64,000 bases of DNA from Escherichia coli (GTDB lineage: Bacteria > Pseudomonadota > Gammaproteobacteria > Enterobacterales > Enterobacteriaceae). Of this stretch, positions 1,625 to 51,624 are shown in pieces (within the stretch, counting starts at the first letter, position 1; each line of letters starts with the position of its first letter). The DNA lies in assembly GCF_011045215.1 (NCBI RefSeq), contig NZ_CP049202.1; one strand, written 5' to 3'. Made by a program: the position numbers and the translations under genes. The notes beneath the pieces are model-generated. The model did no database searches. It had not been told where the DNA came from and was given only the letters and a program-made list of their open reading frames with translations.

Positions 1625-4600
1625 TCAGTCTCCGCCCAGGGTTTTCTCTTTCTGCAGGTCACGAACCATATCCCGCTCCATCTGCTGCAGTCGCTCCTGC
1701 AGCAGATTTTCCCGGGCAACCTCCCGGACCGCTTCCCGCACCCGTTGTGGTTCACGCAGTACACTCTCCGGCAGCGCGGCTTCCCGTTCAGTTATGGCAG
1801 CCCGGTCACGCTCCTGCCCGGCAATCTCCCTGACAGCCTGCTCTGTTTTGCCATCCGGCAGGTCAGGTTTGTTCTCTGCCATTTTACGGACAATTTCATC
1901 TGCGCGACGTTCCGTTTCACGGCGGATGGCCTCTTCAGCCTGCCGCTGTGCCAGTACCTCTGCCGTGACCGGTTCGCCATTTCCGGCCCCCGGCTGGACG
2001 CTGTTGTCCGGAATATCTCCCCACACGCGACCACCGGTGATGGCACCGGGATTCCACGGGCGACCTTCACCGGCAATTCTCACCACCACACCGCTGTCAG
2101 GATTATCACGAGCAATCCGGACGCCATCCTGCATGTTATCAGCCAGCAGACTCTCTCCGTTACGGCTGCCCTGCAGGGCCACGAACTGCGCATCTCCGCT
2201 GCCTTTCACCCGGCCTTCACCGCTGAATCCCCGCAGCCCGTTTCCGTCATCCGTAGTCAGTGGGTTCAGCCAGATACCGGCGGACTTGCCGTTACGGTCA
2301 AAAGCCGGCAGTGCCACATACGGCTGCGGATATTTGCGCCCCGGTGCAATAAACCGTGCAGGACTGTCTCCCCCGGCAAGTCCCGCCTGACGGAGAACGG
2401 CACGCCCTGCCGCCACGTCCCGCAGTTCCCGTGCCGTACTGAACAGTCGCTCTGCATTCATGACCTCCCGGTCAGCTTTCGGCTCCAGCACATCGTGGGC
2501 AGTCCCTTTCTGTACGGCATTGTTGATGGCATCCGTCCAGCCCTGACGGTCATCAGTGTACACCTGCACATGCTGCTTCATACGCGACAGGGCAACGTAG
2601 GCTGACTCAAAGCCGGCCATCTGTTTCCGGCCACCTTCCGTGCCTTCAAGCGCGATGGCAAAGGTTTCACTCGCCCCCTGTGCACCGTGGGCAGTGATGG
2701 CATAGGCCAGGTCAATATGTTGTTCTGCCTGCTCCTGACCGGGGCGAATCACCCGGGTCTGCAGTCCGTCAGAAAGCGTGACACTGTCACCGGAAACCGC
2801 CGTCACCGTCCAGACGCTGTTGGCCACATAGCCGCGCTCCCGGTCACTCTTCGTGAAGCGCATCCGGTCACCGGTCCCCACCCGGATGGTGTCCGGGGTG
2901 TACAGTGTGACACCTTCAGCCACCGCCTCCCGGGGCGAAATCAGCCGCGTGTTACCTTCCGCATCCTGCAGGGTTATCAGCCCGTCACCCTTACTGATAC
3001 CGGCAATCCGGTGATACACATTATCCACCAGGACAAGTGCGTCCCGATGTGTCTCCCAGGTGGAGAGACGACGCAACTCCCCGTCGCGTATATTCGCTGT
3101 GTTCAGGACAGGCACCATGACCTGCTCTTTTCCCAGCTCACCGGCCTTTTCCCGTGCATCATGAATCATGCTGTTCAGTACGCGCCGGTCCTCATTCAGA
3201 TGCGTGACAATCAGCGTCTGCTCCCGTGCTTCCGGCGTCCTGCCGGTATAATCGCGGACAATGGCTTCATACAGTGTCATGGGAATATCCGGAAAAGCCT
3301 CACCTTTCAGCATCGCCTTCTGCTGCGCTTCTGCCAGTTTCGCTTCCTGGCTGTGACTGAACTCCGTCACGGAGTGCTCCGGTACCCATGCGCCCTCCTG
3401 ACGTGGCACCTGAGACGGTTTCACACTCTCAAGCCCGGACAGTGCCCTTTCCACATCCCGGTTAATCAGGCTGTATACCGCCTCCCGCAGCTCCGGCGTC
3501 TGACGCACAATCTCCTTCATGATGGCCACATCGGCAGCACTGCGCGTCTGCTGGAGACGGAAAGGCTGACCGGGCGCGATGGCCTGCAGCTGGTCCGTGT
3601 CACCACTGGCCACGGCACGACCACCACCGGCCGCAATCAGGGCGTATGCCCGTGCCATGTCGGTATTGCCCACCATTGAGCTCTCATCGAGCAGGAACAG
3701 CGTGTTGCTGAAATCCGGCGTTTCTCCGCTGCGCTGCTGCAGCTGCGTGTCATGCAGAAAGGACGCCAGTGTCTGTGCATCCACGCCAGCGCTGCGCATC
3801 TCCCCGACCGCACGGTGCGTGGGCCCCAGCCCCACGACACGGGGACGCTCACTCTCCGGCAGCATGTTCACGGCTGACATCACCGCCCGGAACTGTGTGG
3901 TCTTACCCACACCGGCATAACCCTGCACCACCGTGAAGCGGTCAGAGGTTTCCAGTATCATGCGGGTGGCGGCACGTTGCCCCGACGTCAGTTTCTCCAT
4001 AAGTTCGCCAGGTACTCTCTCCATCAGCGGCGTGACAGCCTCCTTACCTTCGAGAATATGGCGAATAATGCTTTTTTCAGCCTCATATGACGCACGGGAA
4101 ACCAGCAGGTCTGTGCCATAACCTTTTGCCACATCCACATGCAGTAAATCACCGCGTTTTATCTGTGCATCGATTTCCCGCCCCAGGTCAGCAAAACTGG
4201 TTCCTTCTGCAGCAAACGACTTTGCCTCTGTCAGCAGGTCCACATGGCTGAAGGCCAGGTTTTTACTTTCCACCACCGGAAGGGCCAGATGAATGGCCTG
4301 CTGTGCCGGCGTGTGAAGTGCGGACTTCTGATGACTGATAGCGGTTTCCAGCGATGTCTCACCGGCCCGCGCCTTTATCTGCTCAGAAACCACCGTAAAG
4401 GAGGGATGGCGGGCAAGTTTTTCCGCAGTACGGGTTTCATCCAGTGAGGAATACAGCCGGACATCACGACCGCTGCGGGCCAGACCGTTCAGGGTGGCGT
4501 TGTCCATTGCCATCTGTGTGACGGAGGCAAAAACCTTCGCACTGTCGCTGACGGAATGCCCGGGCGTTTCCACCCAGCCGTTCTCCAGCTTCAGTGCCGT

Positions 4601-6895
4601 GAACGGTGAATCAGCCACAGGCAGGGTGGCCGGTTCAGCCCGCCCCGGCACAACAACCGTCATCGCATCTTCACTGACGGATGCCACCTGCAGGCGGTCA
4701 CCGCCGGAGACGCGGAGTCCGGGGATTTGTCCCGTCACCCTCAGACGCTCGCCGTCTGCCACCGGCATTTTTTCCGGCCGGAACAGCGACCAGCTGCTGT
4801 CCAGAGAAGAAATACGCACCACCTGCGTTTCACCCTGCGCATCCCGCAGGGTCAGGCTGTGACTCTGCGCCGTCACCCGGTCTATCACATAGCGGTCATG
4901 ACTGCGTGTCTCCGGGTTCCACTGCTCCATCACCATCCCCGGGCGGTACATATCCCGCAGATAACGGCTCCGGCTGTCCAGCCAGACCGGTGACAGGGCG
5001 GTCATGGTTACTTCCGGGTGTCCGAGCACGCCCTGTGTTTTCAGCTCACTGCGAATGGCCTGTGTCAGTATGGCCTGTTCCCGTACCCCGCTGACCTGTG
5101 CCACGCTCTCTTCTCCGGCTTTCACGCTGGCCGCAAAATCTCCTGCCAGCCGGGCATAGCGGACATTACGGTCCGGTTCACTGATGATGGTGGCCGGTCG
5201 CTGTTCTCCCCCCAGCCAGCGATATGTGTTCACCCCGGCATCCTTCATGGCCATCAGCGCACTGCCTGTACCGGTTCGCTGCCCGCTGTCGGTTATCAGG
5301 ACCTGTACGTTATGACGTGCGGCACCGTCCAGCAGGGTTAACGTCTCTTTCAGGGAGAGTTTTTCGCCCTGGTCAACGATAACAGTACTGCCCGGCGTGA
5401 AGGCCATGCCTTCCAGCAACTGACGACGTCCGGTTATCAGCTCACCGGACAGCCGTTCATCCTGCTTCAGGTTCATCTGCGAGCGACGGTCAGCAGCGAT
5501 AATCTGCACTTCCCGCCCCTGCTCCCGGGCCATCATGACCAGTTCAGCCACCCGCTCACGCTGCCCGGCTGCACCGCCCTGCCCGGACACAATGGCCAGC
5601 GACGGACGGTCCTGTGCCAGAACACTGACCGCATCGCTGTAACCAGCCGTCCGGGGGACACTTTTCTCCGGATGTACGGTCACCCGGTTCTGTTTCATGA
5701 TGTCACGACTGAGTGCCCGGACGGACAGCTCATCGAGCACATGAATTCCTGATGTGAACAGCCCCTTCTCACGGTCGAGGGGGATGAGTTGCTCACGACT
5801 GATGGCCTCATCGATACCGGCGCGTGCCCGTTCAATCACACCATTTTCCGGCGGCAGTATACCGACCGTTCTGGCCAGCACGTCCGTATACGTGAACTGC
5901 ACTTTTCGTTCACTTAATCCGGCAATGGCCTGTGTCACCGCCTGCTGCACATCCGGCCCCTCCAGTGAAACAGCCCCGGGCGCCTGCGTGCGGGTCTCTG
6001 CCCGTTGCTCCGCCGCGTCACGATACGCCCGGATATCGAACCCGGTTTCCTTCAGTGTCTGCATCCACTCGGTCATTTTGATTTCAGGATCGACGTGCTG
6101 TTTGGATTTTCGCGTATCCAGTGCTGCCACATCCCGGGATTTCAGCGAGGCGTCTTCCCCGACGGCCTCCCTGATAGCCTGCGAACGACTGGAAAAGGCC
6201 TCCACCGGTACGCCCGGCATCTCCCACATCCCGTGCTTACCGACCACTTCGGTTTCATAGCCCAGCGCCTCAACCTGCTCTTTCAGCTTTTCCCGGTAGA
6301 GTCTGCCAAAGGCAATCTGATTAGCGTACACATTCTCAATGAACCCTGTTTTTCCCACTTTGTCACTGCTCAGTGTCTTCCACTCGCCGTTATGCTGTGT
6401 AACATTGGCCACCACCGCATGCGTGTGTAACTGTGGTTCCTGATCGCGACTGGTGTCGTGATTAAAAAGCGCCATCACCAGATTACCGGTCAGCACCGTT
6501 TCTGACTGTCCGTCCGTCATAACCCGTGTGGAGGCCAGCGCCTCCACCTGACGGACAGCAAAATCCACGGCCTGGTTATGTGCATCAATAAGACGTTTAT
6601 CACCGCCTAACATGGCCATCACGGAGACACTTTTGGGGGCGGAGAAGGTCAGGTCGTAGCCGGGACGATGCTTATTACTGCCATCCTGCATGCGGCTTAA
6701 ATCCGCTCCGTCCGGCAGCCTGCCCTCCAGAAGACGGGTAAAAACATCCTTATCGACACTGCCCTGCAGCCCCAGCTGTTCAGCCCCCCTGCCGGCCCAG
6801 CGTTCTCCCATGCTGCCCAGCACATAGTAATTATCCTTGTCGGTATAATAGTTACCGGCACTTCCGGCCGATCTGACCTGCGCGATACTCATCAT
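1625..6895 (-). CDS. traI: TraI relaxase/DNA helicase I, 1756 aa
   Basis: N-terminus [24 protein letters not shown], histidine triad region QLHTHAVVAN, P-loop GYAGVGKTT. Same length as F TraI. Confidence 0.97.
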   Translation of the reverse strand: MMSIAQVRSAGSAGNYYTDKDNYYVLGSMGERWAGRGAEQLGLQGSVDKDVFTRLLEGRLPDGADLSRMQDGSNKHRPGYDLTFSAPKSVSVMAMLGGDKRLIDAHNQAVDFAVRQVEALASTRVMTDGQSETVLTGNLVMALFNHDTSRDQEPQLHTHAVVANVTQHNGEWKTLSSDKVGKTGFIENVYANQIAFGRLYREKLKEQVEALGYETEVVGKHGMWEMPGVPVEAFSSRSQAIREAVGEDASLKSRDVAALDTRKSKQHVDPEIKMTEWMQTLKETGFDIRAYRDAAEQRAETRTQAPGAVSLEGPDVQQAVTQAIAGLSERKVQFTYTDVLARTVGILPPENGVIERARAGIDEAISREQLIPLDREKGLFTSGIHVLDELSVRALSRDIMKQNRVTVHPEKSVPRTAGYSDAVSVLAQDRPSLAIVSGQGGAAGQRERVAELVMMAREQGREVQIIAADRRSQMNLKQDERLSGELITGRRQLLEGMAFTPGSTVIVDQGEKLSLKETLTLLDGAARHNVQVLITDSGQRTGTGSALMAMKDAGVNTYRWLGGEQRPATIISEPDRNVRYARLAGDFAASVKAGEESVAQVSGVREQAILTQAIRSELKTQGVLGHPEVTMTALSPVWLDSRSRYLRDMYRPGMVMEQWNPETRSHDRYVIDRVTAQSHSLTLRDAQGETQVVRISSLDSSWSLFRPEKMPVADGERLRVTGQIPGLRVSGGDRLQVASVSEDAMTVVVPGRAEPATLPVADSPFTALKLENGWVETPGHSVSDSAKVFASVTQMAMDNATLNGLARSGRDVRLYSSLDETRTAEKLARHPSFTVVSEQIKARAGETSLETAISHQKSALHTPAQQAIHLALPVVESKNLAFSHVDLLTEAKSFAAEGTSFADLGREIDAQIKRGDLLHVDVAKGYGTDLLVSRASYEAEKSIIRHILEGKEAVTPLMERVPGELMEKLTSGQRAATRMILETSDRFTVVQGYAGVGKTTQFRAVMSAVNMLPESERPRVVGLGPTHRAVGEMRSAGVDAQTLASFLHDTQLQQRSGETPDFSNTLFLLDESSMVGNTDMARAYALIAAGGGRAVASGDTDQLQAIAPGQPFRLQQTRSAADVAIMKEIVRQTPELREAVYSLINRDVERALSGLESVKPSQVPRQEGAWVPEHSVTEFSHSQEAKLAEAQQKAMLKGEAFPDIPMTLYEAIVRDYTGRTPEAREQTLIVTHLNEDRRVLNSMIHDAREKAGELGKEQVMVPVLNTANIRDGELRRLSTWETHRDALVLVDNVYHRIAGISKGDGLITLQDAEGNTRLISPREAVAEGVTLYTPDTIRVGTGDRMRFTKSDRERGYVANSVWTVTAVSGDSVTLSDGLQTRVIRPGQEQAEQHIDLAYAITAHGAQGASETFAIALEGTEGGRKQMAGFESAYVALSRMKQHVQVYTDDRQGWTDAINNAVQKGTAHDVLEPKADREVMNAERLFSTARELRDVAAGRAVLRQAGLAGGDSPARFIAPGRKYPQPYVALPAFDRNGKSAGIWLNPLTTDDGNGLRGFSGEGRVKGSGDAQFVALQGSRNGESLLADNMQDGVRIARDNPDSGVVVRIAGEGRPWNPGAITGGRVWGDIPDNSVQPGAGNGEPVTAEVLAQRQAEEAIRRETERRADEIVRKMAENKPDLPDGKTEQAVREIAGQERDRAAITEREAALPESVLREPQRVREAVREVARENLLQERLQQMERDMVRDLQKEKTLGGD

Positions 6896-9048
6896 CAGAA
6901 ATCATCTCCCGGCTCAACATCCTCCCCGCGCTCCCGGTGCACATTAATGTTCACCTCTTCACGACGCTGCATCTGCTGCTGGATGTCCGGATGATTTTCC
7001 TGTTGCCATGCCTCATAAGCGGCCATATCCACTACTTCACCGGATTCACTGATCCCGGGTGGCAGTTGCTGTTCCATCTCTTCTTCCGGTTTCATTTTCA
7101 GCTCCTGCTCGATCCCCCCTGCCGGAACATTCACACCTGCATCTGACTTCTTATCATTGATGACAGAAGACACTGGCTGTTGTGGCTGTTCAGCCTGAAC
7201 CACGTCTTCTCCGGAAACAACCTCCGGGACATCCGGTTCGAAGAGGCTGGCCATCTGGCGACCTTCTGCTTCTCTTGCGGCAAGCACGGCACTCAGGCGA
7301 TTCTCCATTTCCGGATTGATTTCACGCGGAATAAACTCCGGAGCAACCTTCGGACGTTCCTGATATTTCAGTGAGAGTTTTACTGCCGGATACGGTCCGG
7401 GCAGGGTGACATAACAGGTCAGATCCGGCAGAGACTGAATGTCGGAATAACTGACCAGCGTCTGGCGCTCCATATCCTTACCGGTCGATACCCCGTCACG
7501 CACGGGATCAGCACCGTAGGAATACTGCTCGCTGGCTTTCAGGTGCTCTTTCTCACCAATTTCACCGGCAGCGAACTCTGCAATCTTATGGCTGGGAGAA
7601 CGGAAAAAGGCACGGGTGTTCATGACGTCAAACAGCGTGGCAGCCGCTTTCTCACCGTAGATATCTTCCAGCTGGGCATAGGACTGGATACCAAATACAT
7701 AGCAGCCACCAAACTTACGGGCTTCCGGCAGGATCTCCACCAGGTCCGGCAGTTTGTGTAACGTGGGTAACTCATCACAGAAAAACCACACACGACGGCT
7801 ACGGTTTTCTCCCATTGCCAGCAGACCACGAATGGCAATGGACAGCCACATGGAGATCACCGGCTTCAGGGAGGCATGGGTGTCGGCGTTCGACGAGATA
7901 AACAGCCAGCCGTTTTTCTGATCTTCCCGGACACCACGCATCCAGTCACGGATGGTGAAGGGCTCACCGTTATGCTCAATCCCCTGCAGGTAACGGATGG
8001 CTTTCACGTAGTTGGTCAGCACAGCACGGATGGAAATCGCCGTTTTCTCGATTTTCTCTTCCACCAGGTTGGCCGCCGGTGAATTACGCAGGAAGGTACG
8101 CAGTTTTTCGATTTTGATGGAAAGCAGTGTGTCCACCAGTTTGCTGTAACTGCGGTTGGGGTCATTACGCATCAGGTACGCCGCTTCCGCAAAAATGGTA
8201 CGTCCTGAACCCTGCCAGAACGGGTCCTCTTTTGTGCCCATCGGGATCAGCGTGTTCGCGGTATTATCAAAATCCGGCTGTGTCAGGCACTCCTTCCACA
8301 AATCCCAGGCGGCACAGCGGGCATCCAGCGGATTCAGGATTTTATCGATGGAGGGATCATAGTAACTTTTAACAAATTCCCCTGAACGGTCATAAATCAC
8401 CACCATATCTCCACGCTGACGGGCGTAGTTGGCCAGACGACGGATAACTTCCGACTTACCGGCCCCGACCGTGCCGTGCAGACAGAAGTTCTGGATTTCG
8501 GAATCCCGGATAATCGGCAGGTCGCCAATCCGTATATCGGAGTCCTTGCCGTCTTTTTTCAGCATCCGGGCAACGTCTTTCGGGTTCTCCGTCAGCTGAC
8601 GACCACCTGTGACTTCATTTTCGCTCTGTTGTTTACCCTGACGCCCCAGAATCCAGGAGACAACAAAGAAGGTAATCAGGCAAATAACCAGTGCCACAAC
8701 TGTGGCCAGAACGAATGCGGACCATAGCTGCTCTCCGCACCAGATCATATATTTATCATGCAGTACCTGAGCAGCATTCATCCGGAAGGTTTTGCCGTAA
8801 TACTGGATCTCATATACCGGCTGGGACCTGATTAAATCCCGCATGCCTTCCAGCGTGGTACACCACCAGTAAATACAGCCGTTCACAAACGTCTGCCAGC
8901 TTATTTTTACCCATAAAACCAGACCAACGAGTATCCAGAAAAAAATAAACAGGCAGTAAAGCATGATATTGGCGATCTGGCTGAACATGCGGATACGCAT
9001 GGACGCAATCTGACCGCCCTGGGTCATATCCTTTGCGTTAAAACTCAT
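6895..9048 (-). CDS. traD: TraD type IV coupling protein, 717 aa
   Basis: Two N-terminal TM segments, Walker A GTVGAGKS, acidic Q/E-rich C-terminal tail. Its stop overlaps the traI start (TGATG). Confidence 0.95.
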
Positions 9049-37582: not shown

Positions 37583-37960
37583 AACACACCTTATTTATCT
37601 TCCTAAACAAACAATATGTTTTCGTGCTCTCTATTCTTCACCTTACGACGAATCGCCATTAGATTCATCATACTAAAATTACGATTCACTATACGAATCA
37701 GCAATCATCAAATGACGAATCTAATATAGATTCACGCGCCAAGTAAATAGATGTTTTCAAAAAAATAGTCATTACTGAATCATTGACAATTCGTGATAGA
37801 TTCACTATCGAATCTATCACGAATCCCTGCAATATAATTCAAAATTATATAATATAAATACACTTCATTAATTACATGATTTAAAACACAAATCAGCAAA
37901 AACTTGTTTTTGCGTGGGGTGTGGTGCTTTTGGTGGTGAGAACCACCAACCTGTTGAGCC
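37583..37960 (+). other. oriT: oriT region; nic predicted between 37922 and 37923 on the + strand
   Basis: TTTGCGTGGGGTGT|GGTGCTTTTGGTGGTGAGAACCACCAACCTGTTGAG equals the F-type TraI nic/binding sequence as recalled. The AT-rich region carries gattc/gaatc repeat motifs. Confidence 0.85.
37793..37820. promoter_or_regulatory. Inverted repeat, candidate TraM binding site (sbm-like) / traM operator
   Basis: gtgatagattc-actatc-gaatctatcac. Related half-sites recur between 37650 and 37830. Confidence 0.5.
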
Positions 37961-38523: not shown

Positions 38524-38768
38524 TCTTACAGACATTGTCAGATACCGGTTATGCCGCAAAAGCGGCATGGAAGGCCACACACAAAAATATCATATGAGTG
38601 ACAATACTGACTGGCCGAAGCCCCGCGAAGCGGGAACCCATCTTATATATACCCGGTAACTGCGCAGCCTCCTGCCAGACCATTTTTCGCGGGCACAATA
38701 TTTACAGACAACCGGAAAGCCAGTTGATGAAATTGAGGTATATCAGACGACACAGCGATGCCGAAGAA

Positions 38769-38821
38769 TGATAATATAAGTAAAGCCCCGAAAATTTTTC
38801 GGGGCTTTACTTATATTATCA
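38769..38821. terminator. Perfect 26-bp inverted repeat (bidirectional terminator-like)
   Basis: tgataatataagtaaagccccgaaaa / t / ttttcggggctttacttatattatca. The right arm contains the natural stop of the DUF932 reading frame. Confidence 0.6.
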
Positions 38822-39640
38822 TGACTTCCACTTTCTGAACTGTTCGGCAATCACCCATAACGCCTTGTTGATTCTTATATCACCATCAATACCTGTAATG
38901 GCTCTTGTCCTAGTATTTTTCCCGGAGGCACTTTGCCCCGATCATCCACCTTTTATCATATTCTCCTGAACCCGCTGCCAGGTTGTCCAGAGATCGTTCT
39001 GTTTATCCTCCCAACGATGGGGAGTAATTATCTGTTCAGGCGTCACTGGCGTTTTATTTTCATCTTCATACCTGACCATCAGTGCAGCTCTGCTAAATAA
39101 ATGTTGCTCGTCACTGTTAAGATGAATTTCTTTCATCGCCTCCATATTATCAGTGACCTTATCAAAGATACCGAGTACTTCATACGCTCCCTCGATAACC
39201 TGCTCGACAATATCACCTTTATGTGGAACGCGGATTTCGCCAAAATTATTTCCGCACACCAGGCCATTTGTGCAGACAAAACGAAAAATTCCGGGGATCA
39301 TCTGATAACTGGATGAACCATCATGTGAATTAAGCAGGATAATTTCAGGAACTTCCTGCCCGTTAATATGCCCTTCCCTGCGAAGACGTAACATATGTTT
39401 ACTGTATTCGCGACGTCCCAAATCACGAACCCGACTCTGACAGGCAAAGAATGGCTGGAAACCTTCATCACGTAACTTATTGATGATATTGATTGTTGGA
39501 ATATACGTATAACGTTCACTCCGGGACTCATGTTTATCACCGGAAAATACCGAAGGCACGAACTGCATTAATTCATCATCCGTTAAAGGACGTTCACGGC
39601 GGATGGAATTATACCGACCAAAACGGGAAGCTAATCGCAT
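38819..39640 (-). pseudogene. DUF932 (YfjQ-like) gene with an in-frame opal codon
   Basis: MRLASRFGRYNSIRRERPLTDDELMQFVPSVF... resembles E. coli YfjQ. TGA at 38942-38944 is followed in frame by 40 conserved-looking codons (SGQSASGKNTRTRAITGIDGDIRINKALWVIAE...). Total 274 codons. Confidence 0.75.
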
Positions 39641-40045: not shown

Positions 40046-40066
40046 CCTGCTTTCTCCTCTCTCTGG

Positions 40067-40620
40067 TTTTCAGCCCCCATCATCTTTTGAGTTTCGGGAG
40101 CCGCGGTTTTGACGTTTTGCGGGGACCTGCCTTTTGTTCCCTCCGGTATTCACCATCATCTTTTTGAGAACCTTCGCCGCAAGGGGCATCACTGCCACGG
40201 CCGGAAACGACTGTCCGGGGGCAGACCGCAAAAGTTTTTGCCTGCTTCTGGGCAAAAACTTTTGCGGGATGTGCATTTCACCCCTGGACTGGCGGAGACG
40301 GTTGTGGCTGTATCAGCCCCCGGCGACAGGGGATTAAACAGGTGAATGGCACCGGACAGAACAACGGGCAGGGACCCGCCGCAGCGACGTGAAGCGCGGT
40401 TTGCGAAACGGCGTTGCCCCTTACATCCCGGCGGCCTTTTGCCGGGATGCCGGGAGCGCAGGCCACGGCGCGACAGAGGCGGCGCGACCGGAACGGTCGC
40501 TGCAAGCCCGGGGTTTCGCGTCAGGGATGGAAGCCCGCCAGGGCGGAGACAGCTTCGCTGGCTCCGTTCACGACAGCCCGCCCCGCCAGGGGGACGCCCG
40601 GAAAAGGCATAAGCAGGAGA
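40067..40620. repeat. Direct repeat copy A (~554 bp), GC-rich structured non-coding element
   Basis: Near-identical to 45462-46018. Spurious ORF peptides from the two copies differ by single residues. Confidence 0.9.
40121..40377 (-). promoter_or_regulatory. Frpo/ssi-like long imperfect hairpin in the T-strand (candidate ssDNA promoter, minus-sense output)
   Basis: Perfect 16-bp apical stem 40227-40242/40251-40266. The arms stay partly complementary for ~120 nt (ggtgaataccgga vs ggtgaatggcaccgga; gaacaaaaggcaggtcccc vs gaacaacgggcagggaccc). Confidence 0.6.
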
Positions 40621-40915
40621 ACAACAAAACAGACAATAATCAGGGCAGCAGTAATCAGAGTCAGAACAGGAGGAAAAAGAGAATAATCAAAGGGAAGGTG
40701 ATGTGATTTCTGACAGGTCATAAACAGAGAAGGCGGGGGAAAAGAACGGGCGCCGCAGGCGCACGTTCATCCCCGTTCCCGGAGGGAAACGGCCTTCCTG
40801 GCAGTCTGGTTGTTCATGCCCGTACAATGCCAGCAAGGAGAAAGGGGCCACCGGCGAACCAGCAGCCCCTTTATAAAGGCGCTTCAGTGCAGTCAGACCA
40901 GCATCAGCCCTGAAA

Positions 40916-44603: not shown

Positions 44604-45439
<836 letters not shown>

Positions 45440-45461
45440 GATGTGTCTCCTTCTGTTGATG

Positions 45462-46018
45462 TTTTCAGCCCCCATCATCTTTTGAGTTTCAGGAGCCGCG
45501 GTTTGACGTTTTGCGGGGACCTGCCTTTTGTTCCCTCCGGTATTCACCATCACCTTTTTGAGAACCTTCGCCGCAAGGGGCATCACTGCCACGGCCGGAA
45601 ACGACTGTCCGGGGGCAGACCGCAAAAGTTTTTGCCTGCTTCTGGGCAAAAACTTTTGCGGGATGTGCATTTCACCCCTGGACTGGCGGAGACGGTTGTG
45701 GCTGTATCAGCCCCCGGCGACAGGGGATTAAACAGGTGAATGGCACCGGACAGAACAACGGGCAGGGCCCCGCCGCAACGACGGAGAGCGCGTGCGCGAA
45801 ACGGCGTTGCCCCTTACATCCCGGCGGCCTTTTGTCGGGATGCCGGGAGCGCAGGCCACGGCGCGACAGAGGCGGCGCGACCGGAACGGTCGCTGCAAGC
45901 CAGGGTTTCGCGTCAGGGATAGAAGCCCGCCAGGGCGGAGACAGCTCCGCTGGCTCCGTTCACGACAGCCCGCCCCGCCCCGCCAGGGGGACGCCCGGAA
46001 AAGCCATAAACAGGAGAG
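45462..46018. repeat. Direct repeat copy B (~557 bp) immediately upstream of ssb
   Basis: Near-identical to 40067-40620. Confidence 0.9.
45515..45770 (-). promoter_or_regulatory. Frpo/ssi-like long hairpin, copy B (candidate ssDNA promoter for ssb-psiB-psiA)
   Basis: Apical perfect stem 45621-45636/45645-45660. The arms are as in copy A. Confidence 0.6.
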
Positions 46019-46022
46019 GAAC

Positions 46023-46909: not shown

Positions 46910-47335
46910 TCAGTCCAGTGCCGCGTAAATCGCGTTGCATTCAGGGTGAAATTCGATGTGACGCCACAACTGCGCATCACGCATCCGGTAAAGCTGAGTC
47001 AGCCCCGCATCACCGCTGTCGTGGTACAGCCACAACTGACGGTTAATCACAAGGGAAGTCAGAATGACACCTGCGGCATCAGCACTCACAGTACGGTCAA
47101 ACCAGTTTGCACCGTTCACCATGTGGAAACGGTCGCCATCCGGCATCATGTAACCGCCACCGTCCGGCAGGCGGATGAAGTGCCAGAATCCGCCTTCATA
47201 TTCCGGCATCATTTTTTTCGCCAGCGCGTATACAGACGCTTCGGCATACAGAAAATCCTGGCCAAACAGGTAAGGCAGAAAAGACAGACGGTCGCACTCT
47301 TCAACGTTCAGAGTGACAGATTTCGCATATTGCAT
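46910..47335 (-). CDS. klcA: KlcA/ArdB-family antirestriction protein, 141 aa
   Basis: Size, leading-region location and overall sequence ([32 protein letters not shown]...) fit KlcA/ArdB as recalled. Confidence 0.75.
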
Positions 47336-47374
47336 GATGTTTTCCTCCGTTGTTCACATATTCCGCGACACCGG

Positions 47375-47606
47375 GCGGTGCCGTGCCTCCATAAAAGCCG
47401 GGCGATAAGGCGGGGATGCAGGGGCGCAAGGGAAGCCGCAGCCTGACGCACACGGCTGACGGGAGTTGGAGGGTGAGACCGCGAAATCTGAGCGGGTGAA
47501 CGACCGGAAAATCACGGCAGACGGGAAGAAAGGACCGGGTGACCGCAGCGGCAAAGCGTACCCTTGCATCCCTGCCAGCCCGGCTAAGATGGAGGCACGG
47601 CACAGC
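47375..47606 (-). promoter_or_regulatory. Long imperfect hairpin in the T-strand upstream of klcA (candidate ssDNA promoter/ssi)
   Basis: Arm 47375-47403 (gcggtgccgtgcctccataaaagccgggc) pairs with 47578-47606 (gcccggctaagatggaggcacggcacagc). The inner arms ggggatgcaggggcgcaaggg / cccttgcatccctgcc also pair. Confidence 0.55.
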
Positions 47607-47751
47607 CCGCACACGACGCTGAGGCCACATAACTGAAAAACCACAAGGCCATGCCCTGCATGGCCGGGTAAAGCGGAGCCGGCGGCGACTTCCTTTGTGC
47701 TCTGTCCGGGGACCGGCAGGAAAAAGGCGGGGATTTACCCCGCCAACGTCA

Positions 47752-48522
47752 TCATTTCCGGATTTTTGCCAGGGCATCCGCCATGCTGCGGATTTCGGCC
47801 CGGGCTTCCCGGACCACCTCCCGCAGAACACCACGGTCAAACCAGCGGCGGGGCGGTTCATCCGGTATACGCAGCACATCGCAGGCCAGCCCACTGGACA
47901 GGATATGCTCAATACAATCGCTGACCAGGTACATTTCCACCGACGAAAAACGTGCTCCCCGGTTCACGATGGCATCGAGCACCACGGGCAGGTTTTCGTC
48001 ATCTTCATCGAGCCAGCAGGGGTGATCGCTTTCCTTCACAACCAGACGAAAGCGGCGCGTCTGGCGGGTCAGCAACGTCTGACCGGTGGTGGTCAGCGCC
48101 GCCCGGATACGCCGCGCATCGTCTGCCACCTGGTAACAGATGCTTCGTATTGCATCGCGCACCGCCGCAAGTACAGCCCTGATTTCGTCTTCTGCCAGCC
48201 ACTCACCGGCATACGGGAAAGACACCTGCGTTCCGTCTGCCGGAAGTACCGGCAGCGACTGCCACTGACTGCCGGACAGAACAAGTTCCGCCCCGGTTCC
48301 GGTCAGTTTCTGAATGGCAGAGGCCAGGTGCGGCGGCAGTACGCCGCCGTGACGGTTGATAAGTAACGTCGCCAGCCGGGGCGTATCCAGCCGCACGTAA
48401 ATGCTGATCCAGCCCGGATGGTTCGGATTTCGCTGGTCAACATCCGTCTCTTCCGGCCAGCCCTGCGCCAGCAGCAGGTTACGGGCGTGGCGACAAATCA
48501 GTGCATTCAGCGTTTCGTTCAT
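47752..48522 (-). CDS. Hypothetical leading-region protein, 256 aa
   Basis: Good SD (GGGAGACC). No recognised motif. Confidence 0.6.
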
Positions 48523-48566
48523 GATTCATGGTCTCCCTGAATCGCCGCCCGCAGGCGGCGATAACA

Positions 48567-49001
48567 TCAGTCGTTTTCGCGTGTGTTGTTTTTCAGCAGG
48601 GCGCGGGCCTGATTAACCACCGCCAGTCGGCGGGTGACGCATTCCGGGACGACGAGGCCGTTATCACGGGCGGCCCACTCACGTTTCCACAGTGCCTGTT
48701 CAGCGGTCTGAATCAGGGACGCCAGCAGTTCAGCAGGGACGGTCACCTGGCGGTTTTCGCTCACGTTGCTGATAATCTCCATCACCGCGGCGGAAGAAAT
48801 ACCGGATTCAGTCCTCTGGTCTTCCGGGATGTCCTCCATGCGCGCCAGGACGGTCCTGATTTCATGATCGGTCAGAGAAATTTCCATACCGTCAGCCAGT
48901 GCCTGAATCTCTTCCGGAGACCAGATAACCAGCATCAGCGGCGTGTCTCCCGGATACTTTGCTGCCAGCTCCCGGCAGAGCGTTTCGCATGTTCCGTACA
49001 T
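48567..49001 (-). CDS. DUF1380-like leading-region protein, 144 aa
   Basis: Start MYGTCETL with SD AAGGAGACGAGA. Paralog of 46444..46863. Confidence 0.6.
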   Translation of the reverse strand: MYGTCETLCRELAAKYPGDTPLMLVIWSPEEIQALADGMEISLTDHEIRTVLARMEDIPEDQRTESGISSAAVMEIISNVSENRQVTVPAELLASLIQTAEQALWKREWAARDNGLVVPECVTRRLAVVNQARALLKNNTREND

Positions 49002-49014
49002 TCTCGTCTCCTTC

Positions 49015-49236
49015 TCAATCTTTAAAGCACGCATCCAGTTCCAGAATTTCGGTATATGCCTCCATCAGGAGGCGGTTTGCGCGAAACAACGTCTGACGCA
49101 CCAGACGTTCCGGCAGGGTGTCAGCATTAAAGCTGTACCGCCGCTCCATCTCATTCATGGTTGTACGCAGGTCGCACATGGCATTGGCCACCTCCGCCAC
49201 TTCGGCGCGAAGTTTTTCGTGTCCGGCATAGTTCAT
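49015..49236 (-). CDS. Hypothetical small helical protein, 73 aa
   Basis: ORF directly abutting the methyltransferase stop. Confidence 0.5.
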   Translation of the reverse strand: MNYAGHEKLRAEVAEVANAMCDLRTTMNEMERRYSFNADTLPERLVRQTLFRANRLLMEAYTEILELDACFKD

Positions 49237-49920
49237 TTACGCAGCCTCCGGCATAAACCAGTCATCATTCGCGGCCCCCTGCTGCATGGCCCGTTGCACG
49301 GCGGCAAGGCGTTGCTGCCCGGCACGGTGATACTGCTCAAGCAGCTCGATACCGATATACCGGCGTCCGGACTGGAGGGCGGCGACGCAGGTTGAGCCGC
49401 TGCCTGCAAACGGGTCCAGCACAATTGCGTTCGGGTGTGTGAAGCTCTCAATCAGCGGTTGCAGGCTGGTAACGGGCTTTTCCGTCGGGTGATGGCGATT
49501 GCCCGAATATTTCCAGCCCAGCACGTCCGGCGGCGGGTTTTGTGGCAGACGTGGACGGCCTTTTGCCAGGATGTAGGCGCATTCGTGGCGATAGCCCACA
49601 TATGCGGCCTTCGATGTGTAGTTTTTGGTGAAGACCAGGTGACCAACAACGCTGAATCCCGCATTTTTCCAGGCGGCAATAAAGCGATCGACGCGGTTCC
49701 AGCCATAGAAGCTCACCATTAACGCGTCTTTTTTCAGCACGCGGTACATCTCATTACAGGCCGGTTGCAGCCATTCATCGGTTTTATCTCCGGCGATGGT
49801 GCGCCCGGAACGGTCACGAAAACCGACGAGATATGGCGGGTCAGTTAATATGAAATCAATGGCGTTATCAGGGATACGCGTCATAACATCGATGCAGTTA
49901 CCAAGAACAAAACGGGACAT
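49237..49920 (-). CDS. Orphan DNA methyltransferase (DPPY N6-A/N4-C class), 227 aa
   Basis: Motif IV LTDPPYL near the N-terminus and motif I VLDPFAGSGST near the C-terminus. No adjacent endonuclease gene. Confidence 0.85.
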   Translation of the reverse strand: MSRFVLGNCIDVMTRIPDNAIDFILTDPPYLVGFRDRSGRTIAGDKTDEWLQPACNEMYRVLKKDALMVSFYGWNRVDRFIAAWKNAGFSVVGHLVFTKNYTSKAAYVGYRHECAYILAKGRPRLPQNPPPDVLGWKYSGNRHHPTEKPVTSLQPLIESFTHPNAIVLDPFAGSGSTCVAALQSGRRYIGIELLEQYHRAGQQRLAAVQRAMQQGAANDDWFMPEAA

Positions 49921-49980
49921 AATAACGCTCCTTCTCTTACAGAGGGCACCGGGAGGGCACCCCTGTGGTGCCCGTTCCCC

Positions 49981-50202
49981 GCTGCCTGTGGGCTGTTCAC
50001 CGCGTCCGGTAACGGGTCAGGCCGACCGTGGAATATCGCAGCCGTCGTCTTTTTGACGGCGAGAATATGCCGCGAAAGCGGCTTGAAGGGCGTTCATCAG
50101 AAAAGGGCGACAGGCTGGCGTACACTGTCACCGGTACCAGCCGGGAGCAGTAAAAGCGCCCGTCCCGTGCCCGCCGGACGCGGGACACTGACCACAGGCA
50201 GC
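49981..50202 (-). promoter_or_regulatory. Long imperfect hairpin in the T-strand upstream of the methyltransferase gene (candidate ssDNA promoter/ssi)
   Basis: gctgcctgtgggctgttcaccgcgtccgg (49981-50009) is complementary to ccggacgcgggacactgaccacaggcagc (50174-50202). Confidence 0.5.
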
Positions 50203-50271
50203 GTTCCTGCCGCGCCGCGTCAGCCGGCGCAGTAAAAAGAGGAGCACGGCGACATCCTTTGTCGGAAAAGA

Positions 50272-50293
50272 AACGGGCGGTTGCCCGCCCGTC
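50272..50293 (-). terminator. Rho-independent terminator after the DUF1281-like gene
   Basis: In minus sense: gacgggcgg-gcaa-ccgcccgt followed by TTCTTTTCC. Confidence 0.6.
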
Positions 50294-50304
50294 TCCGTCA
50301 TACT

Positions 50305-51231
50305 TCATCCGCCATAATGCGCCACATTGTCGACTATCCACGCAGGTCCGGTGACTTCCGGCAGCTCATCGTCATCTGTCGGGGAAGAGCATTCCAGTTC
50401 CCCCCACAGCACATCAACGAGCTCTCCGCGCTCATACAACTGCCAGCCACAGAAATTGCAGCCCTGTTCGGCGTACCAGTGCTCCAGCGTGCAGCCGAAA
50501 CGGCGGCTTAATTCTGCAACAACGTTGCTTTCCGGCTGACACCACGGCGTGTCGAAATCCACCTGAATGAAGTTGTCTCCCTGACGGCTGATATTCACCT
50601 CATACCTCACAGGCCACTTCACGCCATACTGTTCCGTATACCAGTGATACGCAGAAGGAACACCGTTCAGAACACCACCGTTAAAGCCATTCACTTCAAC
50701 ATCCAGGCGGGTGGGCAGAACCGTCAGCAGGTCAAACGGCATGGTTTTTTCCGGCAGTACATTGTCACACAGACGGTTCCACCACACCGATACATCCTCG
50801 TTACTCCAGAAGCCACACCAGTCACCTCTTTTGGCGGTGAAATGCACGGTGATGGTTTCTCTGACCTCATCCGGTAATCCTTCCCAGCGACGCTGGCCAG
50901 TACCACTCTGCAGCCAGAGTTCATGCAGCATCAGGCAGTTTTGCTCATCCAGCAGTACACCGTCCTGCAGGTATGTCAGCCAGCGGGTGAACGCGATATT
51001 CTCCGGCGATACAACACCACGTCCGGCAGCCGTCAGTCCGGGGCACGGTTCAAACTGCACATCTTCAGTGGTCTGCAGAAGTCCGGCACTTCCGGCCAGA
51101 AATAGCTGAATACCTTCATTTGTGGCGCGGCGATAAAGCGGTATGACTGCACCGCTGGCCAGTCGTTTAATCTCAGCGATCTGTGCCGGTTCACCAGAAA
51201 AATACATACGATTCGAGCACCAGTTTAGCAT
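50305..51231 (-). CDS. DUF1281-like leading-region protein, 308 aa
   Basis: Start MLNWCSNRMYFSGEP with SD GGAGAATTCCC. The family assignment is from memory of similar YubB/YfjI-type proteins. Confidence 0.55.
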   Translation of the reverse strand: MLNWCSNRMYFSGEPAQIAEIKRLASGAVIPLYRRATNEGIQLFLAGSAGLLQTTEDVQFEPCPGLTAAGRGVVSPENIAFTRWLTYLQDGVLLDEQNCLMLHELWLQSGTGQRRWEGLPDEVRETITVHFTAKRGDWCGFWSNEDVSVWWNRLCDNVLPEKTMPFDLLTVLPTRLDVEVNGFNGGVLNGVPSAYHWYTEQYGVKWPVRYEVNISRQGDNFIQVDFDTPWCQPESNVVAELSRRFGCTLEHWYAEQGCNFCGWQLYERGELVDVLWGELECSSPTDDDELPEVTGPAWIVDNVAHYGG

Positions 51232-51263
51232 GGGAATTCTCCTCTCACATGCGGCCTCCATCA

Positions 51264-51424
51264 GGCCGTGCCGCACCTGTAACCGGGCGACCGCATACGA
51301 ATGCAGGTGCGGCCCCGAAGCCGCAGCGCGTGGAGGAGGAACGACGAAACGTGACCGGGTGAGGAGGCCTGCGACAGCGACACACTTGCATCGGATGCAG
51401 CCCGGTTAACGTGCCGGCACGGCC
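51264..51424 (-). promoter_or_regulatory. Long imperfect hairpin in the T-strand upstream of the DUF1281-like gene (candidate ssDNA promoter/ssi)
   Basis: ggccgtgccgcacctgtaaccgggc (51264-51288) pairs with gcccggttaacgtgccggcacggcc (51400-51424). The inner pair is gcatacgaatgcaggtgcg / cacacttgcatcggatgc. Confidence 0.55.
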
Positions 51425-51554
51425 TGGGTAACCAGGTATTTTGTCCACAGAACCGTGCACAAAATGCTGTGGATAAGCTGGACACAACAGTCCACAGCAG
51501 GCATACAGCCACACTCTCAGAGAATTGAGCGTTTTTTAGTCACAATAATGACAT

Positions 51555-51603
51555 TTGACTGTGTGTGGATTCAGTTATTAGAATACTGTATATACATACA
51601 GCA
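51555..51603 (+). promoter_or_regulatory. imp promoter with LexA (SOS) box
   Basis: TTGACT (51555-51560), 18-nt spacer, TAGAAT (51579-51584). TACTGTATATACATACAGCA at 51584-51603 fits CTGT-N8-ACAG. Confidence 0.85.
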
Positions 51604-51624
51604 AAAGAAAAGGGAGATGAGAAC

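Follow-up and report, generated by a model that had tools for sequence, protein, structure and literature searches.

The question raised by the DNA studied here is whether three long hairpins, each lying just upstream of a minus-strand gene, serve as promoters while the DNA is still single-stranded. The stretch analysed, referred to below as the window, comprises 64,000 nucleotides (nt) of Escherichia coli contig NZ_CP049202.1 (assembly GCF_011045215.1) and belongs to an IncF conjugative plasmid. The hairpins, designated elements 1, 2 and 3, precede a klcA/ardB-type antirestriction gene, a DNA methylase gene homologous to M.EcoGIX and a DUF1281 gene, respectively (Table 1). An earlier note on the same sequence had proposed that they form a second family of candidate single-stranded DNA (ssDNA) promoters, distinct from two longer repeats, A and B. 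Folding, base-pair covariation, strand bias and motif conservation of the elements were demonstrated. Elements 1 and 2 are very probably ssDNA promoters, of the types known as class 2 and class 3, respectively, and element 3 is a short class 2 hairpin for which promoter activity is mildly favoured.

An inverted-repeat search of positions 47300-51500, with pairs allowed within 400 nt, returned four inverted pairs, three of which were elements 1-3. The arms measured 32 nt in element 1 (47372-47403 and 47578-47609), 30 nt in element 2 (49980-50009 and 50174-50203) and 27 nt in element 3 (51262-51288 and 51400-51426) and were 88, 83 and 81% complementary, so that the earlier description of nearly perfect terminal arms was too strong. 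The GC content of the elements was 64-68%, compared with 50% for the window. When the + strand was folded as ssDNA, elements 1, 2 and 3 gave -73.2, -67.5 and -48.1 kcal/mol with z-scores of -7.55, -5.87 and -3.85, and none of 200 shuffled sequences was as stable. The existence of three long GC-rich hairpins was thus confirmed both by the repeats and by folding. A DNA-fold scan of the whole 64 kilobases (kb) in 300-nt segments (n=3186), modelled on a published hairpin screen, ranked two copies of the Frpo hairpin (repeats A and B) first and second, element 2 third (-88.4 kcal/mol), element 1 fourth (-77.4 kcal/mol) and element 3 sixth (-69.1 kcal/mol). From the stem base to the next minus-strand ATG, the distance was 36 nt for element 1 (ATG at 47335), 59 nt for element 2 (49920) and 30 nt for element 3 (51231), within the 30-60 nt noted before. 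The corresponding open reading frames (ORFs) begin 29, 40 and 26 nt past the nhmmer profile matches to the three elements.

The elements proved to belong to two unrelated sequence families rather than to a single second one. Elements 1 and 3 share GAAGCCGCAGC (47416-47442 and 51301-51327, 78% identity), as had been noticed, and no sequence similarity was found between element 2 and either of them. In a blastn search with a word size of 7, none of the three matched a Frpo copy, whether from the window, from F or from pESBL, and the statement that they are not copies of repeats A and B, which are class 1 structures, was upheld.

Both families have published counterparts. Wen et al. (2025; PMC12672017) detected six ssDNA promoters in early pESBL transconjugants by RNA sequencing (RNA-seq) and 5' rapid amplification of cDNA ends (5'RACE). 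The ssi1-3 hairpins make up class 1, those preceding klcA and ardA class 2, and the one preceding M.EcoGIX class 3; classes 2 and 3 were stated to be conserved in F (PMC12672017), where the copies have been named ssp2 and ssp3 (Fraikin et al. 2026, preprint; bioRxiv 10.64898/2026.01.09.698686). In local BLAST comparisons with pESBL-EA11 (NC_018659.1) and F (NC_002483.1), element 1 showed 96% identity to the klcA hairpin and 94% to the ardA hairpin of pESBL, and 96% to the hairpin that precedes ardB/yfgB in F. Judged by sequence, it is the orthologue of F ssp2 and of the pESBL klcA and ardA promoters. Element 2 was 95.7% identical to the pESBL hairpin 5' of M.EcoGIX (positions 4462-4762 of locus L004) and 97.4% identical to its F counterpart (positions 7846-8147 of locus L002), and the methylase gene downstream had 91% nucleotide identity to the pESBL gene. 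By the same comparison, element 2 is the orthologue of the pESBL M.EcoGIX promoter, and its F counterpart is, by inference, ssp3. Since elements 1 and 2 are 94-97% identical orthologues of published ssDNA promoters, the hairpin-promoter reading of the earlier note was borne out for them.

At least 5000 enterobacterial plasmids matched the 5-kb region around the elements in BLAST at an identity of at least 90%. Because all of these matches were too close to be of use for diversity, contigs of species-representative genomes were scanned with the methylase protein, which gave a diverged set of 47 loci with methylase identities of 60-100%. Profile searches returned about 50 class 2 copies, all in the gene-sense orientation; the only class 2 matches on the opposite strand were three of 48 nt inside the palindromic stem. 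The consensus fold of 24 non-redundant class 2 sequences contained 44 pairs, 25 of which were compensatory. The proportion of paired cells was 93.9%, compared with 32-40% when the partners were slid by 1-3 columns, and double changes occurred in 25 pairs, compared with 7-8 in the slid controls.

The 3' arm of class 2 hairpins carries an almost invariant CTTG-N18-TAnnnT motif with variable middle bases. Both TTG and TAnnnT were conserved in 21 of the 24 non-redundant members; the -35 variants were TTGCAT, TTGTAT, TTGTCT and TTGACA, and the -10 variants included TAAGAT, TAACGT, TACAGT, TAGAGT and TATAGT. Two further blocks, AAGCCGCAG and GACCGGGTGA, were invariant in all 24 members, long and short. 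A metagenome scan with the pattern AAGCCGCAG-N15-45-GACCGGGTGA yielded 120 loci, of which 24 were real class 2 copies according to nhmmer and the remainder were chance matches. Almost all of the real copies were near-identical to element 3 and therefore added little covariation. Class 2 copies altered at key promoter positions were also seen (L022:2707-2981, L008:8288-8555, L122 and L168), the changes being a -10 of CAGAGT, a 4-nt insertion at the -35, TTACAT and TAACGG. These copies may be natural promoter down-mutants.

About 26 class 3 copies were found by profile search, again all in the gene-sense orientation. The consensus of 15 enteric sequences is a predicted three-way junction of 69 pairs, in which an outer stem (P1), an apex (P2) and a side hairpin (P3) can be distinguished. 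Paired cells amounted to 96.9%, compared with 33-44% after sliding, and 10 pairs were compensatory, compared with 0-5; most of the enteric compensatory pairs lay in the outer stem. The invariant blocks of P2 were GGTCA, GTGGAATA, TATGCCGCGAAAGC and TTGAAG. In Achromobacter, Bordetella and Paraburkholderia (loci L033-L046), methylase homologues with 60-66% identity are likewise preceded by class-3-like hairpins, which lie about 230 nt upstream of the methylase start at position 6001 of each locus. These beta-proteobacterial hairpins have the common core GGTCA..GTGGAATA..TATGCCGCGAAAG..TTGAA and a reduced P3. With them added, 23 of 41 class 3 pairs were compensatory, and GGTCA and TTGA were invariant across the gamma- and beta-proteobacterial copies. 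From these sequences, the class 3 design seems to be much wider than the F and IncI1 plasmids in which it has been reported. Covariation and ssDNA folding, both of which the earlier note had named as checks, thus came out in favour of the hairpins.

The strand on which the hairpins fold and their position relative to genes were informative. In all 24 class 2 sequences, and in 14 of the 15 of class 3, the transferred strand was the more stable of the two, and G.T cells outnumbered A.C cells in class 3 by 72 to 7. This bias suggests that selection acts on the entering DNA strand and not on mRNA. It is a result for the families and not for elements 2 or 3 singly: the two strands of element 2 fold almost equally well (-70.3 vs -71.4 kcal/mol), and the margin for element 3 is below 1 kcal/mol. 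About 75 full-length profile matches of both classes were obtained, all gene-sense, and start codons equipped with a Shine-Dalgarno sequence lay 17-48 nt beyond the match, with one outlier at 105 nt.

The pairing of hairpin and gene was variable. Class 2 hairpins precede klcA/ardB, ardA, the methylase gene, DUF1281 and two other ORFs, and class 3 hairpins precede the methylase gene, DUF1281 (three loci: L014, L017 and L023) and one other ORF. The methylase gene is preceded by class 2 at 11 loci (L008, L010, L011, L013, L015, L019, L021, L024, L030, L031 and L048, at about positions 5725-5980) and by class 3 instead at L012, L014, L016-L018, L023, L025-L028 and L041. Therefore, the two classes behave as exchangeable promoter cassettes. 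A miniature inverted-repeat or repetitive extragenic palindromic (MITE/REP-like) mobile element was considered and rejected, because no flanking duplications were seen, the orientation to genes was fixed and the internal promoter motif was conserved.

The transfer strand was assigned from the F-type nic-site core in the origin of transfer (oriT), which had a single zero-mismatch match in the window, on the + strand. It follows that the + strand is the transferred (T) strand and that 38-51.5 kb is the leading region; since all leading-region genes are on the minus strand, the entering + strand serves as their template. We infer activity of the elements in this plasmid, and their exact start sites, from these data. 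During mating, the + strand would enter the recipient 5' to 3' from the nick at about 37.92 kb, and, before complementary-strand synthesis, each element would fold on itself so that the long imperfect stem rebuilds a duplex -35/-10 promoter with the 3' arm as sense strand and the 5' arm as template. Host sigma-70 RNA polymerase would then initiate in the basal stem and read outwards along the + strand into whichever minus-strand gene follows, that is, klcA/ardB from element 1, the M.EcoGIX-type methylase gene from element 2 and DUF1281 from element 3. Specificity for ssDNA would come from mismatches placed exactly at the -10, where the hairpin offers an unpaired A-11 and the duplex reads a non-promoter sequence (TACAGG in duplex and TAACGT in hairpin for element 3; TGAACA and GACACT for element 2). 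Second-strand synthesis would shut the genes off.

In element 1, the -10 bases TAAG (47585-47588) oppose AAAA (47392-47395) and form a 4x4 bubble, so that A47586, the A-11 of TAAGAT, is exposed in the hairpin, whereas the duplex form reads TTTTAT. The predicted start is near 47597 on the 3' arm, opposite template base ~47384. The corresponding boxes of element 3 were placed by homology with class 2, which would make A51408 its A-11 and put its start near 51419, at template base ~51269.

For class 3, a different arrangement is proposed: the -35 would be assembled across the three-way junction, provided that P2 stacks on P1. In element 2, TTGA from P2 and CC from P1 would make up TTGACC, and the -10 would be GACACT, of which A50185 (A-11) and T50189 (T-7) are unpaired in the predicted fold; the modelled start lies near 50196, at template base ~49987. 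By hand count, each of the six beta-proteobacterial copies read had a 17-nt spacer between the -35 and an nAnnnT hexamer (GACTGT, GACGGT and GATTGT), and enterics had one of 18-19 nt (GACACT in the window and CACACT in others). A TAnnnT hexamer (TACACT, 50121-50126) in the loop of P3, which spans about 50088-50161 in element 2, was tried as the class 3 -10 and rejected, because it lies 29-32 nt from TTGAAG and because beta-proteobacterial copies with an otherwise intact core lack this loop entirely.

Element 3 lies at the distal edge of the leading region. It is 165 nt long, compared with 238 nt for element 1, the apical extension of about 70 nt being missing. It matched the class 2 profile with an nhmmer E of 6e-25, a value to be read with the fact that element 3 is among the seven source sequences of the profile; an identity of about 70% to element 1 over the promoter arm is support independent of the profile. 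It forms 41 of the 44 family pairs, with 11 compensatory and no one-sided changes relative to element 1, and retains every family-invariant block as well as the TTG-N18-TAnnnT motif. Its identity was 98.7% to pESBL, where it also lies 5' of the DUF1281 gene, and 98.2% to F. In comparisons with pESBL, F and two other genomes, 1-3 changes were counted in the 165 nt of the element and 39-58 in about 928 nt of the DUF1281 coding sequence (CDS), which corresponds to a conservation of 98-99% vs 94-96% (Fisher p 0.003-0.02). Element 3 is unlisted in published mining, plausibly because its 300-nt fold of -69.1 kcal/mol is weaker than the threshold of -75 kcal/mol, and it is apparently an unreported short class 2 paralogue in the ssDNA-promoter literature. 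The chance that it is an active ssDNA promoter is rated somewhat above even.

A broader reading is advanced tentatively, since its parts taken jointly are rated slightly below an even chance: that element 3 is a functional seventh ssDNA promoter, that classes 2 and 3 are interchangeable cassettes and that class 3 has an old split -35. According to this reading, element 3, as a class 2 promoter of minimal length (165 nt), would drive DUF1281 in IncI1 and IncF leading regions and mark the distal end of the block transcribable from the entering strand; cassettes would have been shuffled before methylase, DUF1281, klcA and ardA genes across Enterobacterales; and the TTGACC assembled across the three-way junction would be an old design common to the beta-proteobacterial elements.

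Several points weigh against the explanation of the three elements as ssDNA promoters. None of 500 shuffles reached the class 2 covariation values, but the sequences are related and shuffle controls overstate significance, the slid-partner controls being the fairer ones. The class 2 spacer is 15 nt on the non-template arm and 19 nt on the template arm, outside the usual 16-18 nt, so the promoter model relies on an asymmetric internal loop. The class 3 model has a -10 that lacks T-12 and a -35 that would depend on coaxial stacking. As to element 3, its pESBL orthologue is absent from the six induced operons and promoters of Wen et al., its fold is much less stable than those of elements 1 and 2, DUF1281, its presumed target, is truncated in F (168 aa), and no probable promoter was found upstream of 'the next cluster' in F (PMC13478746).

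Most of the points concerning element 3 would also be expected if it were a decayed or very weak class 2 copy that gives no meaningful early transcription of DUF1281 and is kept, perhaps, because it marks a structural boundary, hinders replication weakly or offers a place for priming. Its weak fold (z-score -3.85), its position short of the -75 kcal/mol cut-off and the metagenomic variants with TTACAT or TAACGG fit such a view. The retention of all invariant blocks and of nearly all family pairs, with no one-sided change, speaks against decay, as does the fact that the element is significantly better conserved than flanking CDS and intergenic DNA. Short class 2 forms also recur directly 5' of the methylase gene in Erwinia (L030) and in metagenomes. 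Moreover, other plasmids place a class 3 hairpin before DUF1281, from which it follows that this gene is normally served by such a promoter. Decay is thus considered rather unlikely, and element 3 as a working promoter is preferred.

Another possibility is that the hairpins serve mainly in replication, as ssi or primer-RNA sites or as roadblocks to second-strand synthesis, a role compatible with promoter activity. Transcripts from Frpo act as primers of DNA synthesis in vitro, as those from ssp1 apparently do in vivo. The element 1 orthologue ssp2 is a mapped stall site: it stalls complementary-strand synthesis at the stem end until UvrD resolves it, and this stall prolongs expression from ssDNA promoters and aids against type I restriction (bioRxiv 10.64898/2026.01.09.698686). 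Neither of the invariant blocks, AAGCCGCAG and GACCGGGTGA, is part of the -35/-10 region; both are located 20-60 nt upstream of the -35, and the promoter model therefore leaves them unexplained. They may be linked to the roadblock, to contacts with SSB or RNA polymerase, or to priming. A role chiefly in replication does not account for the fixed distance to start codons with Shine-Dalgarno sequences, for the gene-sense orientation or for the conservation of TTG and TAnnnT. In the preprint, which included an ssp3 swap, ssp3 was reported to have no roadblock activity, and the published RNA-seq induction of downstream genes shows that the transcripts act as mRNAs. For these reasons, replication as the main function is regarded as improbable, to about the same degree as the decay of element 3, and transcription from ssDNA remains the favoured function.

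It is very improbable that the hairpins act at the RNA level, as 5' untranslated region regulators, attenuators or terminators of transcripts from upstream duplex promoters. Any DNA palindrome also folds in read-through RNA, and terminator-like hairpins do occur nearby. However, the mRNA-like complement of the + strand folded worse in 38 of 39 family members, and the excess of G.T over A.C cells in class 3 is against pairing in the transcript. A consensus scan of 47300-51600 (4.3 kb) found no duplex sigma-70 promoter on the minus strand, its sole match being the impC promoter on the + strand (51555-51584). Rfam 15 gave no match at gathering score in the element region and none at E<=1 in 47300-51500. 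Published start sites of the orthologues, moreover, agree with the hairpin-promoter predictions.

The elements had also been described as non-coding, which is at odds with annotation at element 2, where a RefSeq CDS for a hypothetical protein covers the hairpin (WP_032219116.1 in pSTEC005, WP_010892536.1 in F and WP_001310011.1 in pESBL). In homologues with 73-77% nucleotide identity, this reading frame is not kept: each of the three frames contains stops, conserved peptide strings move from one frame to another, and the alignment has 1-nt indels. The CDS is probably spurious, an artefact of GC-rich structured DNA, as had been suggested for the overlapping ORFs of these regions in general. That element 2 is part of an annotated 103-aa protein gene with incidental palindromy, despite the annotation in three plasmids and the 114-aa ORF in the window, is the least credible explanation, given the broken frame and a conservation that tracks base pairs.

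Table 1. Features of the window discussed in the text, with positions in window coordinates.
Feature	Position	Strand	Basis or remark
F-type nic-site core GGGGTGT/GGTGCT in oriT	37916..37928	+	Exact match
Frpo1/ssp1a-type class 1 ssDNA promoter (repeat A)	40066..40625	+	96% identical to F Frpo region; best-folding 300-nt segment of the scan
ssb	44905-45444		Frpo2 copy lies 5' of it
Frpo2/ssp1b-type class 1 ssDNA promoter (repeat B), 5' of ssb	45461..46022	+	Direct repeat, F match
klcA/ardB-type antirestriction gene	46910..47335	-	Annotated 'antirestriction protein'; element 1 upstream
Element 1, long class 2 ssDNA-promoter hairpin	47372..47609	+	Inverted repeat, fold, orthology
Element 1 AAGCCGCAG / GACCGGGTGA blocks	47432-47441, 47533-47542		
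Element 1 -35 TTGCAT	47564-47569	+	3' (non-template) arm
Element 1 -10 TAAGAT	47585-47590	+	3' arm, 15-nt spacer from -35
Two terminator-like hairpins (47744-47726 and 47665-47647)	47647..47744	-	Upstream of element 1
DNA methylase gene (M.EcoGIX homologue)	49237..49920	-	Annotation; element 2 upstream
Element 2, class 3 ssDNA-promoter structure	49980..50203	+	Inverted repeat, fold, orthology
ORF over element 2	49997..50341	-	114 aa; RefSeq 'hypothetical protein' 49997-50308, ~103 aa
Element 2 proposed split -35, TTGA (P2) + CC (P1) = TTGACC	50083-50086 + 50164-50165	+	Inference
Element 2 proposed -10 GACACT	50184-50189	+	18 nt after -35; mismatch-rich part of P1
DUF1281 gene, presumed target of element 3	50305..51231	-	Annotation; 308-aa ORF
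Element 3, short class 2 hairpin, distal edge of leading region	51262..51426	+	Inverted repeat, fold, nhmmer
Element 3 AAGCCGCAG / GACCGGGTGA blocks	51317-51326, 51353-51362		
Element 3 -35 TTGCAT	51386-51391	+	Homology with class 2
Element 3 -10 TAACGT	51407-51412	+	15-nt spacer; homology with class 2

The surroundings of the elements are those of a plasmid leading region. Outward from the nick, the gene order is a DUF932 gene, hok/sok, psiB, a ParB-like gene, ssb, klcA/ardB, the DNA methylase gene and DUF1281, and the block terminates at the divergent impC-umuDC operon. Rfam matches in the window were FinP and the traJ 5' untranslated region at 37.0 kb and sok at 41.1 kb. Repeats A and B are direct repeats with 96-98% identity.

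Two terminator-like hairpins at 47647-47744 would close the methylase transcription unit just before element 1. A GC-rich hairpin followed by a T-run was recognised by eye, although it was not called by the scan, on the minus strand at about 50262-50291, upstream of element 2. Each of elements 1 and 2 thus seems to begin its own transcription unit after a terminator.

A perfect 27-nt palindrome with a 1-nt centre (ATGATAATATAAGTAAAGCCCCGAAAA / TTTTCGGGGCTTTACTTATATTATCAT; 38768-38822) was found in the oriT-proximal leading region and resembles a bidirectional terminator. Between element 3 and impC, three DnaA-box-like 9-mers were present at 51440-51605, one of them perfect (TGTGGATAA, near 51470), and a LexA-box-like palindrome, TACTGTATATACATACAG, lies at about 51586-51603, after the + strand sigma-70 match. 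During the methylase scan, contigs filed under Veillonella, Streptomyces morookaense, Oscillospiraceae and Ferruginibacter were found to carry this enterobacterial plasmid leading region (L005, L015, L029, L032, L047, L049 and L050; methylase identity 88-100%, with six of the seven at 92-100%). They are almost certainly contamination or mis-binning of public assemblies.

With such hairpins, antirestriction and methylase genes can be switched on in the first minutes after a plasmid enters a cell, while its DNA is still single-stranded, and this early expression is central to the way in which resistance plasmids overcome host defences. The principle is established in the literature, and no new one is claimed here. 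The element 1 and element 2 types are already known and were characterised experimentally in 2025-26; ssp2, also called 'Frpo3', was found independently by a third group (PMC13478746), and a Frpo/ssi site upstream of ecoGIXM had been postulated earlier (PMC7736820). Samuel et al. (2024) listed an element 1 homologue as candidate Frpo'4 and short relatives of element 3, from an insect metagenome, as the low-certainty Frpo*1 and Frpo*3.

The present analysis adds covariation-backed consensus structures for both families, a minimal class 2 form missed by energy-threshold screens, evidence for swappable promoter modules and a testable split -35 model for class 3 that reaches the beta-proteobacteria. 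It also indicates that the 'hypothetical protein' placed over the class 3 hairpin, which recurs in thousands of RefSeq plasmid records, is probably a mis-annotation. These additions are incremental; element 3, the swapping of cassettes, the split -35 model and the hairpins of beta-proteobacteria all call for experiments.

Phages, too, have promoters that arise when ssDNA pairs with itself and that disappear in the duplex. The minus-strand origins of M13/f1 contain a promoter-like hairpin that sigma-70 RNA polymerase recognises while the ssDNA is coated with SSB, and phage N4 has hairpin early promoters that are used by a phage RNA polymerase. The M13 hairpin yields a replication primer, and both phage systems are unrelated to the elements in sequence and context. 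Closer in design are the class 1 structures, Frpo/ssiD of F and ssi1-3 of ColIb-P9 (Masai & Arai 1997; Bates 1999; Couturier 2023, PMC9849209), which likewise are long imperfect hairpins of the transferred strand that rebuild a -35/-10 promoter and drive leading-region genes only as ssDNA. Class 1 differs from elements 1-3 in its ~330-560 nt of conserved sequence and its -93 kcal/mol per 300 nt, and no similarity between them is detectable. Compared with class 2 of pESBL and F, element 1 is the same hairpin (94-96% identical) before the same gene, klcA/ardB. Between element 2 and the pESBL class 3 hairpin, or by inference F ssp3, the downstream methylase is the same and nothing substantive differs. 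Element 3 has the whole structural core and promoter motif in common with class 2 of pESBL and F; it differs in the missing apical extension of about 70 nt, in having DUF1281 downstream and in standing outside the published promoter lists, and among published candidates it is closest to Frpo*1 and Frpo*3.

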